From positions 1-44,513 of the forward strand of contig CAZPLO010000010.1 of assembly GCA_964587725.1 (NCBI GenBank): a stretch of DNA of 44,513 bases, written 5' to 3'. The notes below the pieces were generated by a model, which saw only the letters and a program-made list of their open reading frames with translations, did no database searches and had not been told where the DNA came from. The stretch's first letter is position 1; each line of letters starts with the position of its first letter. This DNA comes from an uncultured archaeon (GTDB lineage Archaea > Altiarchaeota > Altiarchaeia > IMC4 > SCGC-AAA252-I15). Of the stretch, positions 8,717 to 13,911 are shown piece after piece. Position numbers and translations under genes: made by a program.

Positions 8717-9631
8717 TCAGAAACCCTTCTCCTCCCGCTCCAGTAGCTTCCGAACGTTCTCCGTCACCATCTCCTGTATGTGGGCGACGGCTTCCTCGTT
8801 CTTCTCCGGCCGGAACAGGTGGCGGAACCTCCCCTGCAGCTTCAGGTACTCTTCAACGGGTTTGAGGCTGTCTGGGTCGCGGGGCATGTTCAGCTTGTGC
8901 TTCCCCCCGGTTATCTCGTACAGGGGGGTCGCGCCGGTCTCCACACCCAGCTTCAGTATCTGTATAGACTTCGAGGAGTCCGTCCTCCACCCCGGGACGC
9001 AGGTGTTGTACACGTTCACGAACGTCGGACCCTTCGTCTCCAGCGCAGTCTTCACCTTCCTGACCAGGTCTGCGTGGTATCCGGCCGACGCGGTCGCAAT
9101 ATACGGGGACCCATGGGCCTCCAGTATGTGCGGGAGGTCCTTCTTCCACTCCTCCTTGCCGACGGACACCTTGCCCGCAGGCGACGTCGTGGTCGCCGCC
9201 CCGTAGGGCGTTGAGCCGCTCCGCTGTATGCCCGTGTTCATGTAGGCTTCGTTGTCTGTGCACACGTAGGTTATGTTGTGGCCTCTTTCAAACGCTCCTG
9301 ACAGGCCTCTGATTCCGATATCGTATGTGCCGCCGTCCCCTCCTATGACGAGCACGTTCACGTCCTCCTTCCCCAGCACCTTCAATGCCCTTTCAACGCC
9401 GGAGCCTATGGAGGCGTTGTTTTCGAATGCACCGTGTATCCACGGAACCTTCCACGCGGTCTCCGGATACGGGGTGGACACGACCTCCATGCAGCCGGTG
9501 CACTGGATTACCACGGTGTTGGGGCCGGCGGCCTTCATGACAAGCCGTATCGCAAGGGCTTCCGCGCAGCCTGCGCACGCCCGGTGGCCTTTGGCGAAAT
9601 ACTCTCTCTCGTCTAAACCCATTACAGCCAT
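8717..9631 (-). CDS. porB: Pyruvate:ferredoxin oxidoreductase beta subunit
   Basis: GHRACAGC, TGCMEV, GGDGGTYDIG, DNEAYMNTGIQRS (TPP binding). Confidence 0.95.
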   Translation of the reverse strand: MAVMGLDEREYFAKGHRACAGCAEALAIRLVMKAAGPNTVVIQCTGCMEVVSTPYPETAWKVPWIHGAFENNASIGSGVERALKVLGKEDVNVLVIGGDGGTYDIGIRGLSGAFERGHNITYVCTDNEAYMNTGIQRSGSTPYGAATTTSPAGKVSVGKEEWKKDLPHILEAHGSPYIATASAGYHADLVRKVKTALETKGPTFVNVYNTCVPGWRTDSSKSIQILKLGVETGATPLYEITGGKHKLNMPRDPDSLKPVEEYLKLQGRFRHLFRPEKNEEAVAHIQEMVTENVRKLLEREEKGF

Positions 9632-9632
9632 T

Positions 9633-10805
9633 TTAGTACATCCACTCCTCCTTCTCCCCCTTGCCGCTGAGGGTCATGTCTATTATCTTCTCCACATGGT
9701 CTAAACGCACGTCCCTGCCGCCGAGGCCGACGATGAAGCTCCGCATCTCAGGTCGTTCATCCGAATCGTAGAGTGCGGATGATAGTTCATGGTACAGCGG
9801 CCCGCCTAGCCCCGGCGACAGCGCCTTCTCCACCACAGCCACCTTACCGCATCCGGACAGCTTCTCCTTCAACAGTCCGGCTGGGAACGGACGGTATGTT
9901 ATGAGCTTCAGCAGCCCCGCCTTAACGCCCTTCTCCCTCATCAGGTCTATGGATTCCTTTATTGTGCCGCAGACGCTGCCCATCGCGACCAGCACGACGT
10001 CGGCGTCCTCCATCATGTATTCCTCAACGTGGTAGTATTTCTCAGGCCGGGAATGCTTTATCTGCATGGGGAACTTCTTGTTGAACTCCCCCATCACCTC
10101 TTCGATGACCTTCATGGAGCCGTTCATGGCGTCGCAGACGTCCCTGCGGAACTCCATGTAGTGTGTGGGGAACCCTATGGGCCCTTGTGTCAGTGGCTCC
10201 TCAGGGTCCAGTACGGCGTGGACCGGCTTGTACTTCGGCACGAAATCCTGTATCTCCTCCTTGTCGAGTATGTCCACGGGCTCGTACACGTGCGACAGCG
10301 TGAAACCGTCCATGCAAACCATCGACGGCAGCAGCACGCGCTTGTCCTCGCTTATCCTGTGCTGCATGATGGTCATGTCGTAAGCCTCCTGCGCGGTCTC
10401 CACATAGAGTTGAATCCATCCCGCGTCCCTGGCGGAGATGCTGTCCTGGTGGTCGTTCCATATGCTTATGGGTGCGCTCAACGCGCGGTTCACCACGGAC
10501 ATGCACACCGGCAGCCTCATCCCCGACACTATGAACAACACTTCGTGCATGAGCGCGAGGCCCTGAGACGACGTCGACGTGTAGGCTCTGACGCCGGTTG
10601 CGGAGGCGCCGAGGCACGCTGATATGGCGCTGAACTCCGACTCCACGCGTATGTACTCTGACTTGATTTCGCCGTTGGCGACGAACTCTGAAATCCTCTC
10701 CACAATGTGGGTCTGCGGCGTAATAGGGTAAGCTGCGATGACATCCGGCTCAATCGCCTTCACACCCTCTGATATGGCGTGGCTCGCCTCCATCACTTCC
10801 TTCAC
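9633..10805 (-). CDS. porA: Pyruvate:ferredoxin oxidoreductase alpha subunit
   Basis: AYPITPQT, ESEFSA, TSSQGLALMHE, GLGGRD; real start is GTG 10805 overlapping the porD stop (GTGA). Confidence 0.95.
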   Translation of the reverse strand: MKEVMEASHAISEGVKAIEPDVIAAYPITPQTHIVERISEFVANGEIKSEYIRVESEFSAISACLGASATGVRAYTSTSSQGLALMHEVLFIVSGMRLPVCMSVVNRALSAPISIWNDHQDSISARDAGWIQLYVETAQEAYDMTIMQHRISEDKRVLLPSMVCMDGFTLSHVYEPVDILDKEEIQDFVPKYKPVHAVLDPEEPLTQGPIGFPTHYMEFRRDVCDAMNGSMKVIEEVMGEFNKKFPMQIKHSRPEKYYHVEEYMMEDADVVLVAMGSVCGTIKESIDLMREKGVKAGLLKLITYRPFPAGLLKEKLSGCGKVAVVEKALSPGLGGPLYHELSSALYDSDERPEMRSFIVGLGGRDVRLDHVEKIIDMTLSGKGEKEEWMY

Positions 10806-11101
10806 TTTTCTTCCACCACCATTTCGATGCATTTCACGGGGCAGACGTCCGCGCATATGCCGCAGCCTTTGCAGTAGTCGGGGTCGAAGTCGTATTTTCC
10901 GTCTTCGGTCTTGACCCTGGAGGCGTCGGGGCAGTACACCCAGCACATCCCGCAGGCGGTGCACTTCTCATGGTCTGTGACCGGCCTCATCGACCTCCAC
11001 CCGCCGGTCTTGGTCTGGTTGGTGCTTCCGTCGCTCCTCAACACTGATCCCGTGGTTATTTCGGCTTCACCCACCTTCTTCTTCCCCAAGTCAGCCTTCA
11101 T
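10802..11101 (-). CDS. porD: Pyruvate:ferredoxin oxidoreductase delta subunit (2x[4Fe-4S])
   Basis: TGGWRSMRP, CTACGMCWVYCP, YCKGCGICADVCP. Confidence 0.95.
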   Translation of the reverse strand: MKADLGKKKVGEAEITTGSVLRSDGSTNQTKTGGWRSMRPVTDHEKCTACGMCWVYCPDASRVKTEDGKYDFDPDYCKGCGICADVCPVKCIEMVVEEK

Positions 11102-11637
11102 TTTCCTTTAGCCTGCTCGTATACGTCTTGGACGAGTTTCTTGTTCTTCTCCGCTATGCCGCCGCTGAAGTGCTCGTCCACGCCCTTCAGCAGCCCCTCC
11201 ACGCTCACGTCACCGGTGAAGCCGGCGTATGCGCCGAGCATGGCCGTGTTCACGATGTCCCTGCCCAAGACCTCCATAGCCAGCTTGCTCACGTCCAGGG
11301 TCTTCACATTCAACCCCTTCAGTCCCAGGTCATCGGGGCTCTGGTTTGTGTTGGCGATTACCATGCCCCCCTCCTTAAGCCCTCCGGTAACGTCAACGGC
11401 CTCGAACAACGTGCTGTCCAACACGACGAGCACGTCCGGCTCGTAGACGGCGCTCTTACGCCGCACGAACTCGTCCGAAATTCTCACGAACGCCTGCACC
11501 GGCGCACCGCGCCGTTCGACGCCGAATTTGGGGAACGCCTGCGTGTATTTGCCGTCGTGGAATGCTCCGACGGCGAGAATCATGGCGGCCGTGACAGCGC
11601 CTTGGCCGCCCCGTCCGTGGAAACGTATCTCCTTCAT
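11098..11637 (-). CDS. porG: Pyruvate:ferredoxin oxidoreductase gamma subunit
   Basis: MKEIRFHGRGGQGAVTA, FGVERRGAPV, NTAMLGA; start ATG 11637. Confidence 0.95.
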   Translation of the reverse strand: MKEIRFHGRGGQGAVTAAMILAVGAFHDGKYTQAFPKFGVERRGAPVQAFVRISDEFVRRKSAVYEPDVLVVLDSTLFEAVDVTGGLKEGGMVIANTNQSPDDLGLKGLNVKTLDVSKLAMEVLGRDIVNTAMLGAYAGFTGDVSVEGLLKGVDEHFSGGIAEKNKKLVQDVYEQAKGK

Positions 11638-11753
11638 CTTCGGAGTGAACTTATATGAAACACACCTTAAAAAGACTCCCCTGTCCGGGCGGGAATCTTC
11701 GACGTCCGACGCAATCAACCTTTTTATACTCCCACCGCATTATATTTACCTCC

Positions 11754-12011
11754 ATGGAAGCGACCATAACAAGCTACCGGCGGGGCAGGCGCACCCAGAA
11801 CACCCGGCAGATGATAATTCAGCCGGCGGACTCCAACAGCAGGGAGGAGGCGGAGAAGCTCGTCGGAAAAAAAGTCGAGTGGACCACCCCCTCCGGGAAG
11901 AAACTGGAGGGCAAGGTCAGCAAACCCCACGGCAGCAAAGGCGCAGTATTAGCCCAATTCGACACAGGCCTCCCGGGCCAGGCCATCGGAACCACGGCTG
12001 AGATACTCTAG
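11754..12011 (+). CDS. rpl35ae: 50S ribosomal protein eL33 (L35Ae)
   Basis: SYRRGRRTQ, GKVSKPHGSKGAVLAQFDTGLPGQAIG; start ATG 11754. Confidence 0.93.
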   Translation: MEATITSYRRGRRTQNTRQMIIQPADSNSREEAEKLVGKKVEWTTPSGKKLEGKVSKPHGSKGAVLAQFDTGLPGQAIGTTAEIL

Positions 12012-12066
12012 ATTCTAATTTTTTAACCAACAAAACCATCAAATAAATCCTAAAACCCCACCATAT

Positions 12067-12158
12067 GCCGCTGTAGCTCAGACTGGGAGAGCACCTGGCT
12101 GAAGAGCCCCAAGCACTCGGAAACCAGGGTGTCGCGAGTTCAAATCTCGTCGGCGGCA
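12067..12158 (+). tRNA. trnF: tRNA-Phe(GAA) with 18-nt canonical 37/38 intron (12105-12122)
   Basis: Acceptor GCCGCTG/CGGCGGC-A; D-arm TAGCTCAGACTGGGAGAGC; anticodon stem CCTGG/CCAGG with GAA at 12101-12103; T-arm GCGAG-TTCAAAT-CTCGT. BHB-like motif: CUGA pairs with intron UCGG, flanked by 3-nt bulges AGA and AAA. Confidence 0.95.
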
Positions 12159-12164
12159 AACCAG

Positions 12165-12251
12165 GTCGCGAGTTCAAACGCTCAAGAGCGCTATGCGCTC
12201 TTGGCGCGCCAAAACAGCTTCGCTGTTTTGAGCGTCTCGTCGGCGGCAAAC
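12165..12251 (+). repeat. Tandem duplicate of the tRNA-Phe 3' end interrupted in the T-loop by a 56-bp palindromic element (12179-12234)
   Basis: GTCGCGAGTTCAAA (12131-12144 = 12165-12178) and TCTCGTCGGCGGCAAAC (12145-12161 = 12235-12251) are exact repeats flanking a multi-hairpin insert. Confidence 0.9.
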
Positions 12252-12255
12252 TGTT

Positions 12256-13911
12256 TCATCCGCCGCATCTGTGGATTGTTTCTCTGACCCCGTGTTCCAT
12301 GCTTTCATACTGTAGTCTGCAGTCGGCGAGGTCCTTCCAGACGGCGTGGTCTTCAGGTATCTTGGGGAAGTCCACCACCAATACGGTGTAGTCTACGGCG
12401 CCCCTGGTTTTTTCCACGTAGTCTCCGAGGGTGAACATTATCACTTTTTTGTCGGCCGGCACGTAGGCGCGCACGCCCTCGTCTATGTAGACGTATACGG
12501 TGTCCTCCAAATCCAACCTGCCCAGTTGTTCCACCAGGTCGTCTGCGGAGGCATTGGGGTTGGCGTTCGGGGTTAAACTGGTTTGGTATGCTGTGACTGC
12601 CAGGTTGAAGCATGTTATGACCACCAGGGCTCCGGCGAGCAGTCGAACCCCGCCCCTCAGGTGGTGTGAAATGAGCAGTGCAGCTGTCACGCCCCATCCG
12701 ACAACCAACATGAGCCCCGGCACGTAGAAGCCGACCGGCCCGGCGTTCGAGGAGTAGGGGACCATCACCCCGCCGAGGGAGCCTATGAAGTCCCCTACAA
12801 AATCCATTTTAGGCTCCAAGGGCACAGTCTCATGGTGCACCGACGCAGTGAAGGCCATTAAGATTAGGGACGAGAAACCAGCCGCCGCATATAGTCTCGG
12901 ATTTCCCATTATCTCGTCTACCGCATCCCTGCCGTATGAAATTATCGCCACGGCGACGCTGGGCAACGCGACCATGAAGTATCTGTCGAATGGTCGGTAG
13001 GGGTCCGCGTTCAACCCGAAGAACACGAGGACGCAGGCCAGGATGAATATTGCGTGGGTGTCCTGGAGGCTTCCCCGCTTAACCGTAAGATATGCGGCGT
13101 AAACTATTATCGGCCCGGTCCACAGTAGGAGTATCATCACGGAGGGGGTGCCCAGGACGGGGATGAAGCCTCTTTTACTGACGCTCAACTCCGTGGTATG
13201 GTTTATTATCTCCTCAGCGCTCCCCGGCGCAACCAAATACAATGCCGCGAACGTGGCTGCGGAAAGAATACAGTAGAATGCGATATAGGCTGTCCCCGCC
13301 TTGACTTTCCCCTCAACATCCAGTTTATTGGAGAAGATTAACTGCAGTGTGAACGCGACAGGCAATACGACGGCGGTAAGCATGGTCGCGGTGGCAACGT
13401 AGGCTAGGGAAGAAGCCAGTAGAAGGTTTTTCCATTCGAGGGTTCTGTGGTAGCGGTCCGCGTATACGAGGGAGGCCAGGGTGAACAGGGTAAGTTGTGA
13501 CGCTTGTAGTATGCGGGTGGACATTTGAATATGCCATGGTAAGATGGTCGTCAGAGCCACGGCGGCTATAGCGTATCTAACGCCCGCTCTGTCTCTGACG
13601 TGTTGGAAGAGCAGCAACAACGTTAGTGCGGACGCAATCAACGGGGTCAGACGGAAGGCGTAGTCTCCTGTTCCAACCAAAGAGGCCATGATAGAGTGGG
13701 GGAGCTGAAAGAGCGGTGGTTGCCCGCGGGTGCCGATGAAATTCTCTGGGAAATCATTGACCAGGTACTCGTATTTAAGAATGTATTCGTCCCGTGACAG
13801 ATGCTGGTCTAAGGTGAGCGCCCTCGGTGTTAGAAACAAAAACCCCACGACAATAAACGCCGTCCAAACCCCGGGGCGCCAGTTTCCAGACCCTTCAGAA
13901 CCCATCTTCAC
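12256..13911 (-). CDS. Polytopic membrane glycosyltransferase-like protein (GT-C, PMT/ArnT-like)
   Basis: N-terminal TM then SRDE, QPPLF, FRLTP, DRYFM motifs; many TM helices and a soluble C-terminal domain. Confidence 0.7.
   Translation of the reverse strand: MKMGSEGSGNWRPGVWTAFIVVGFLFLTPRALTLDQHLSRDEYILKYEYLVNDFPENFIGTRGQPPLFQLPHSIMASLVGTGDYAFRLTPLIASALTLLLLFQHVRDRAGVRYAIAAVALTTILPWHIQMSTRILQASQLTLFTLASLVYADRYHRTLEWKNLLLASSLAYVATATMLTAVVLPVAFTLQLIFSNKLDVEGKVKAGTAYIAFYCILSAATFAALYLVAPGSAEEIINHTTELSVSKRGFIPVLGTPSVMILLLWTGPIIVYAAYLTVKRGSLQDTHAIFILACVLVFFGLNADPYRPFDRYFMVALPSVAVAIISYGRDAVDEIMGNPRLYAAAGFSSLILMAFTASVHHETVPLEPKMDFVGDFIGSLGGVMVPYSSNAGPVGFYVPGLMLVVGWGVTAALLISHHLRGGVRLLAGALVVITCFNLAVTAYQTSLTPNANPNASADDLVEQLGRLDLEDTVYVYIDEGVRAYVPADKKVIMFTLGDYVEKTRGAVDYTVLVVDFPKIPEDHAVWKDLADCRLQYESMEHGVRETIHRCGG

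Follow-up and report, generated by a model that had tools for sequence, protein, structure and literature searches.

Non-canonical introns of the bulge-helix-bulge (BHB) type in archaeal tRNA genes, as found in the Thermoproteales and proposed to 'transpose', measure about 50-60 nt, occupy positions such as 59/60 and 21/22, and recur with similar sequences in unrelated tRNAs. Repetitive extragenic palindromic (REP) sequences, bacterial interspersed mosaic elements (BIMEs) and REP doublets forming hairpins (REPINs), which are moved by the Y1 HUH enzyme RAYT, are short non-coding extragenic palindromes that keep structure over sequence and occur singly, in pairs and in arrays. Palindrome-associated transposable elements (PATEs) of the IS200/IS605 group possess hairpin ends with an extrahelical base, show a strand bias and insert next to a short target without duplicating it, whereas classical MITEs (miniature inverted-repeat transposable elements) combine terminal inverted repeats with a target-site duplication. 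Where elements of the SSV/pNOB8 type integrate, the tRNA gene stays intact and its 3' end recurs behind it as a direct repeat (model in PMC3293823). Some features of each of these systems, though not the target-site duplication, recur in a 56-nt twin-hairpin element that splits a duplicated tRNA-Phe 3' end in an uncultured archaeon of the Altiarchaeota (contig CAZPLO010000010.1 of assembly GCA_964587725.1). We consider this insert to be one copy of a lineage-wide twin-hairpin DNA repeat that constitutes a non-autonomous mobile element, a reading to which we assign a probability of roughly 55%. The accessible parts of the literature searched contain no description of such an element. The MITE set of PMC11602168 may include it; the available portion of that paper credits Ca. 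Altiarchaeum hamiconexum with the highest density of conserved MITEs among archaea.

The window, i.e. the whole analysed stretch of 44,513 nt, is contig C10 of genome G000 (1.56 Mb in 48 contigs, 92% complete). It contains an intact, intron-bearing tRNA-Phe gene (Table 1), whose anticodon arm folds into a 4-bp CUGA/UCGG helix plus a 3' AAA bulge, and an Rfam scan of 11500-13000 found nothing besides this gene. A repeat search shows that GTCGCGAGTTCAAA occurs twice (12131-12144 and 12165-12178; 14 nt, 100% identical), as does TCTCGTCGGCGGCAAAC (12145-12161 and 12235-12251; 17 nt, 100% identical). Together the two make up a 31-nt block at the tRNA-Phe 3' end, the second block following a 3-nt spacer, CAG (12162-12164). 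The true start of the redundant copy is 12162, where CAGG corresponds to tRNA positions 40-43, and the duplicated unit is bordered by AAAC both at 12121-12124 (the intron/exon border) and at 12158-12161 (the tRNA end plus trailer). Since the variable-loop GTG (3 nt) is missing from the redundant copy, this is a dead fragment that cannot encode a working 3' half.

The element lies between A59 and T60 in the T-loop of this second copy, and as its boundary cannot be shifted against the intact T-loop, there is no target-site duplication. It has terminal inverted repeats (CGCTCAA/TTGAGCG), its centre reads TTGGCGCGCCAA, and the minus strand contains GCGAAGC. As DNA, the stretch 12166-12251 folds at -28.6 kcal/mol (z = -5.76), and none of 200 shuffles was as good. 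A first-pass annotation of this DNA had described a 56-nt insert at 59/60 of a copied tRNA-Phe 3' end; direct reading and the repeat search recovered every part of that description, and the split tRNA-Phe copy with its insert is a real and statistically solid observation.

Table 1 Coordinates of the tRNA-Phe locus and its twin-hairpin insert within the window
Feature	Position	Strand	Basis
Twin-hairpin element, 56 nt: clamp CGC, bulged T, hairpin 1, GCG, CGC, hairpin 2, bulged A, GCG	12179-12234	no strand	R1 model, covariation
Hairpin 1: CAAGAGCGC-TAT-GCGCTCTTG, 9 bp, perfect	12183-12191/12195-12203	no strand	repeat search, fold
Hairpin 2: CAAAACAGC-TTC-GCTGTTTTG, 9 bp, perfect	12210-12218/12222-12230	no strand	repeat search, fold
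Central GCGCGC, combining the 3' clamp of hairpin 1 with the 5' clamp of hairpin 2	12204-12209	no strand	alignment A1
tRNA-Phe(GAA), intact	12067-12158	+	Rfam RF00005 53.7 bits, ARAGORN
tRNA-Phe intron, 18 nt, at 37/38	12105-12122	+	
Unit duplicated in tandem, 37 nt: tRNA positions 40-73 plus trailer AAC	12125-12161	+	sequence read, repeats
Left arm of redundant copy: CAGG, TC, T-stem 5' strand, TTCAAA (to A59)	12162-12178	+	repeats
Right arm of redundant copy: T60, T-stem 3' strand, acceptor 3' strand, A73, trailer AAC	12235-12251	+	repeats

The evidence for a family comes from ten aligned T-loop inserts, on which we built a covariance model (R1). They share a plan of clamp CGC, bulged base, hairpin 1, GCG, CGC, hairpin 2, bulged base and GCG, such that a 3-bp clamp (usually CGC/GCG), with a single bulged base on the outer strand, closes each hairpin. 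The columns of the central GCGCGC are invariant or near-invariant (alignment A1), making it the best-conserved part of the family. Changes on both sides occur in 16 of the 23 pairs of this ten-sequence alignment, and 93.5% of paired cells are complementary as against 77.3% in shuffles, of which 0 in 500 reached the observed value; shifting the pairing partners lowers pairing to 27-54%. The tRNA-Phe insert itself scores 77.7 bits (E ~1e-12) on the plus strand and 71.3 bits on the minus strand, a high score that is expected by construction given that it is among the ten training sequences.

Further copies are present in G000. BLAST revealed a second at the end of contig C1 (C1:253356-253406), where a 51-nt insert occupies 59/60 behind tRNA-Arg(TCT), the order being gene, 13 nt, a copy of the T-arm 5' part, insert, and the rest of the tRNA end; its hairpin 2 is that of the tRNA-Phe insert, while hairpin 1 is unrelated. 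Two more T-loop twin hairpins stand behind tRNA-Asp and tRNA-Ser(TGA), and on the minus strand of C2:25500-25800 a 5' copy of tRNA-Ile(GAT) carries a twin hairpin at 38/39 (about 60 nt after this copy, the same tRNA begins anew and then enters a stretch of Ns). A search of G000 for single clamped hairpins returned 111 rows, mostly unrelated palindromes, among which were diverged twin hairpins at C9:39267, C20:12966 and C31:8658. Together with the covariance-model search of relatives, the BLAST search within the genome thus bears out the earlier suggestion that the insert is a copy of a recurrent non-coding element.

Matches to R1 occur in 18 of the 21 genomes of the family to which G000 belongs and, at E <= 1e-4, in 31 of the 61 genomes of the class, all of them in one order (Altiarchaeales-type metagenome-assembled genomes, MAGs). 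Every family of that order has the element except one (f2, 0/1), and among the class genomes searched there was no match in families f8 (0/4) and f9 (0/8). Numbers of matches per genome range from 3 to 38, with both strands counted. A strict T-loop pattern, for which we estimate a chance expectation well below one, was found in 10 stretches among one genome each for 185,579 species; all come from archaeal MAGs of this group, five bearing titles of Altiarchaeales or Altiarchaeota and the others being labelled 'uncultured archaeon' or 'Methanobacteriota archaeon'. The same pattern gave five matches in metagenome contigs, four of them real; the fifth (L127) was rejected as a chance match in GC-rich coding DNA. 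Viral contigs contained no stretch with the T-loop pattern, and a single viral match to a looser half-pattern, with neither clamps nor twin hairpins, was dismissed as chance-like.

Comparison of orthologous loci argues for movement. A DNA search of 41 relatives showed that the tRNA-Phe orthologues of two genomes from other genera (G002 and G010) have the whole arrangement, with hairpins that differ in sequence and are still complementary. In G001, a member of the same genus, there is nothing behind tRNA-Phe, so that an empty site of the kind sought by the first-pass annotation does exist. The nearest relative of the tRNA-Phe insert is found in a tRNA-Gly pseudo-copy of another genus (G012:C73), with the same stems and differences only in the loops. 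Taken together, the empty site, the differing hairpins and this nearest relative in a different genus speak for mobility rather than descent.

To describe where copies sit, the best 150 of 193 matches (both strands), in 107,323 nt fetched around matches, were collapsed to 90 distinct sites. These comprise 31 T-loop sites in tRNA sense, 5 T-loop sites in antisense, 4 D-loop sites (following GGTA or GGGA, at about 21/22) and 50 elsewhere, the last being inside tRNA introns or in non-tRNA DNA. As anticipated, the same T-loop position is therefore occupied again beside other tRNA 3' fragments, and T- and D-loop sites lie in partial or decaying tRNA copies beside intact genes. A tRNA is predicted by ARAGORN within 300 nt at 42 of the 90 sites. 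Excision in silico restores a tRNA across the junction at only three, two of which sit inside long predicted introns; the third is a full-length tRNA-Ser copy with disabling acceptor and T-stem changes, upstream of an intact tRNA-Ser. In 23 informative rows (two spurious ones, whose flank was empty, having been removed) the junction has an intact counterpart within 400 nt; this is upstream in 19, as is the rule for T-loop sites, and downstream in 4, namely two D-loop sites and the tRNA-Ser pair. Of 85 distinct sites, 70 have A at -1 and 54 have T at +1. Perfect flanking stems of at least 5 bp are present at 33 of 89 sites compared with 10.8% of 1,341 control positions; this excess mostly reflects the T-arms themselves, and we accordingly do not claim a general rule of hairpin-loop targeting.

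Several loci carry more than one insert. Near-full-length pseudo-copies with inserts in both D-loop and T-loop are seen for tRNA-Gly in G012 and for tRNA-Arg in a metagenome contig, one T-arm copy in G020 has two inserts 4 nt apart, and in G018 two identical units, each of trailer, T-arm and insert, stand in tandem. At eight sites read in a closed relative genome (G026:C1, L114-L121), strings of 2 to 5 hairpin modules adjoin TTTCTTT/AAAGAAA palindromes in intergenic DNA, with no tRNA predicted within the stretches read. The description of the element as 'tRNA-targeted' is consequently too narrow, given that 50 of the 90 sites are outside recognisable T- or D-loops and the G026 arrays lie away from tRNAs. 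Separately, a motif CTTTTTCTTT...AAAGAAAAAGGTGCTTCACCCCAAAAAGAAAA recurs in long tRNA introns and in a tRNA-Ser pseudo-copy (G000 C22:2538-2701; L014, L026, L074), and itself hosts twin hairpins.

The pieces of tRNA in which many copies reside belong to a wider pattern. Once two of 28 ARAGORN predictions with spans above 300 nt are excluded, 14 of 26 tRNAs in G000 are accompanied, at a distance of 5 to 200 nt, by exact copies of at least 11 nt of their ends (e.g. C1:5235-5309, C1:144934-145007 and C2:41407-41481). All seven copies of 5' ends are upstream and all copies of 3' ends are downstream; 3' fragments begin at positions 54-62, and 5' fragments, starting from position 1, stop at 10-25. 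Remains may be layered, as with two 3' fragments behind tRNA-Gly(GCC), where the working gene looks nested in older debris. Exactly this geometry results, with no harm to the gene, when a tandem duplication has one of its breaks within that gene. Most 5' fragments are followed by a small hairpin motif, ACGGCTCGCTCCGT, five of whose nine matches adjoin tRNAs. In its longer form (ACGGCTCGCTCCGT-nCACACGC, then a GC-rich hairpin) this motif directly follows 5' tRNA fragments or tRNA 3' ends; it occurs at C1:5391, C1:104123, C1:144684, C1:144801, C22:2897 and C7:25960 of G000 and at L005, L013 and L059, and twin hairpins are sometimes inserted into it. Rfam reports 21 tRNA matches in G000 (20 over the cut-off). 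At C9:41711 and C15:31486/C24:18442, orphan ends made up of T-arm plus acceptor hint at tRNAs whose interruptions went unrecognised.

If the element is mobile, the tRNA-Phe locus may be explained in two steps. On our reading of the sequence, the spare 3' piece would have arisen by a 37-nt tandem duplication, or would be what is left of an eroded longer tandem copy, through the AAAC microhomology; the element would then have inserted precisely, with no target duplication, after the A at the 3' edge of the T-loop (59/60). Copies are seen, and would be tolerated, only where they are harmless, i.e. in partial or decaying tRNA copies beside an intact gene, in existing tRNA introns and in intergenic DNA, and hits in sole-copy tRNA genes would be removed by selection. 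Behind tRNA-Phe the upstream intact gene would do the work. We infer that the element is, or recently was, mobile in trans, probably through an enzyme that recognises folded single-stranded DNA loops.

The usual candidates for such an enzyme do not fit. Mobilisation by HUH enzymes, as proposed in the first-pass annotation, is supported neither by a profile search, which found no Y1 HUH transposase (PF01797) in the 92%-complete G000, nor by the 61 class genomes, in which element and TnpA are both present in 11, the element alone in 20, TnpA alone in 10 and neither in 20, showing no association. Within the family, each of the five genomes that are at least 90% complete has the element but no TnpA. 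Family genomes with TnpB number 2 of 21, G000 not among them, and a reverse transcriptase is present in 1 of 21; tyrosine recombinases, for which a co-occurrence test had likewise been suggested, are present in 10 of the 21 family genomes and do not track the element. All four enzymes were rejected as movers, none co-occurring with the element.

The structural comparison separates the element from the same systems. Unlike REP and BIME sequences, twin hairpins are archaeal and low-copy, consist of two adjacent hairpins with 3-bp CGC/GCG clamps and one bulged base each, and sit in loops of tRNA gene copies; 20 of the 31 carrier genomes, G000 included, are without a Y1 enzyme. Their ends are the CGC/GCG clamps and have no conserved tetranucleotide head of the GTAG or CGTC type, the tags that the accessible part of PMC3733652 gives for REP elements. 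PATEs differ between their left and right subterminal hairpins and insert at a fixed target of 4-5 nt, whereas the ends of twin hairpins are two-fold symmetric, as the similar scores on the two strands indicate, and their target is little more than the A at -1; moreover, both TnpA and TnpB are absent from G000 and TnpA is unassociated with the element across the class.

Several observations weigh against a mobile DNA element. The failure of Y1 transposase, TnpB, reverse transcriptase and tyrosine recombinase to track the element means that no mover was found. Neither was insertion polymorphism: a single allele is present in four public runs, and an exact search of metagenome contigs with the 35-nt right junction was empty. 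No spare T-arm clearly without an insert was found in G000, and so the coupling of duplication and insertion may be mechanistic, more than a result of selection. An RNA-level or strand-specific process could likewise account for the bias in T-loop orientation (31 sense, 5 antisense) and for the location at the 3' edge of loops. Finally, a full-length tRNA(CAT) at C1:147764-147892 has a canonical 54-nt intron at 37/38, made of two CAAAAC-type hairpins, that scores 34 bits with R1; because this intron resembles the family, we retain a relationship to introns among the rival explanations.

A bolder account, which we hold to be doubtful although worth stating, is that twin hairpins are enzyme-less, structure-guided parasites of tRNA genes, made of DNA or templated by RNA. 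Using host machinery, they would invade T-, D- and anticodon loops at the 3' edge, with each hit forcing, or being coupled to, a partial duplication that restores the gene, thereby nesting tRNA genes in their own broken ends; nesting of this kind is what 14 of 26 tRNAs in G000 show.

Somewhat less probable, and in our judgement unlikely, is an orphaned tRNA intron, whereby an ancestral BHB-type intron at 59/60 of tRNA-Phe was stranded after partial duplication had given an intron-less 3' half, the family as a whole representing the 'transposing' introns of archaeal tRNAs. Sites at 59/60, 58/59, 21/22 and 38/39 are occupied in the family, which we take to be positions of the non-canonical introns recorded in surveys of Thermoproteales, and the tRNA-sense bias and the tRNA(CAT) intron point in the same direction. 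Hand reading of T-loop copies also gives a BHB-like register, in which the T-stem is followed by UUCA/UGAG with bulges AA|C and CG|U (a perfect UUCA/UGAA in G002). This register has two 3-nt bulges and a 4-bp helix, but no inner helix, and is therefore not a strict BHB; folded in this manner the sequence reaches -29.3 kcal/mol, 9.7 worse than the two-hairpin minimum at -39.0. By our own reading, the element's 3' end, TGAG, cannot pair at D-loop and anticodon-loop sites. Moreover, G000 encodes one EndA only, a 176-aa frame presumably of the homotetramer type that needs a strict motif, and the redundant tRNA-Phe copy starts at position 40, such that its exons would not join into a complete tRNA. 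A look-up of RNA runs containing this DNA listed none. With a tRNA reconstituted at 3 of 90 sites, these results agree with the earlier view that no BHB is evident and a 59/60 intron is unlikely. Twin hairpins further depart from non-canonical introns in occurring in fragments and pseudo-copies, in non-tRNA DNA and in arrays.

The base pairs of the element bear on the same question. RNA under selection is expected to use G-U pairs, but these are nearly absent from the stems: across 27 distinct tRNA-sense T-loop copies, 621 cells comprise 574 Watson-Crick pairs, 5 G-T, 10 A-C and 32 other or gapped combinations. As G-T and A-C are both equally rare, both strands must be equally constrained, which points to DNA palindromes and to an element that acts at the DNA level and encodes nothing. 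The five antisense T-loop sites and the G026 arrays away from tRNAs speak for the DNA level as well.

Improbable, too, is the footprint of site-specific integration, in which the 17-nt repeat would represent attL and attR of an integrative element, miniature or decayed, that had the insert in its attP (after Sugahara et al. 2012). Exact copies of tRNA ends at 14 of 26 genes are the pattern that integrases leave, layers such as those behind tRNA-Gly(GCC) occur, and the integration model set out in the accessible part of PMC3293823 covers both intron gain and tRNA fragments. There is also an integrase gene in G000: its sole tyrosine-recombinase match (PF00589; C27:14306-14797, a 502-aa frame) lies some 1.5 kb away from tRNA-Ser(AGA), a gene with a 25-nt 5' fragment of its own upstream. 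Integrases, however, are tRNA-specific, whereas a dozen tRNA species are affected here with a single PF00589 match, on another contig. The 31-nt repeats are only 3 nt apart with no open reading frame between them, fragment borders vary (54-62 and 10-25), and viral contigs gave no match beyond the chance-like one. Accretion of the integrase type as presented in the available text of PMC3293823 fits less well, given that many tRNA species are affected and little DNA lies between the repeats. The tRNA-Phe locus differs further from the fragments left by SSV/pNOB8-type elements in having no element body or nearby integrase and in a repeat that is split by hairpins.

Even less probable is a functional, host-selected structure, i.e. 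a processing, termination or protein-binding signal behind tRNA genes that spreads by duplication. The same layout behind tRNA-Phe of three genera, compensatory changes in the hairpins between flanks that remain 100% identical to the gene, and the proximity of 42 of 90 sites to tRNAs are all compatible with such a role, but tRNA-Phe of the congeneric G001 does without the element, and copies occur, in either orientation, within pseudo-copies, introns and arrays free of coding sequence. Archaeal terminators use a T-tract of a certain length, and by our own reading a tract of that length is absent here. An assembly artefact has a negligible probability: repeats and palindromes can mislead assemblers, but a check for misassembly found a single contig across 11900-12500, with 0 differences, in each of the four public runs (one study, possibly the source), and dozens of independent MAGs and metagenome contigs show this architecture as well.

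As for the surroundings of the locus, the translations suggest pyruvate:ferredoxin oxidoreductase-like genes on the minus strand at 8717-11718 and a small ribosomal-protein-like reading frame at 11655-12011, ending just upstream of tRNA-Phe. A probable membrane protein of 551 aa ends 5 nt past the tRNA-Phe fragment.

If the twin hairpins are indeed a mobile element, Altiarchaeales carry a small palindromic repeat family that prefers the loops of tRNA genes and has no recognisable transposase, and their tRNA loci would record repeated cycles of duplication, invasion and decay. Fragments of this kind beside genes can mislead both tRNA annotation and the prediction of integrated elements, with between 21 and 28 tRNAs called in G000 alone. 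More generally, the finding bears on how archaeal tRNA genes become interrupted, split and fragmented, a question for which this lineage offers many natural intermediates.
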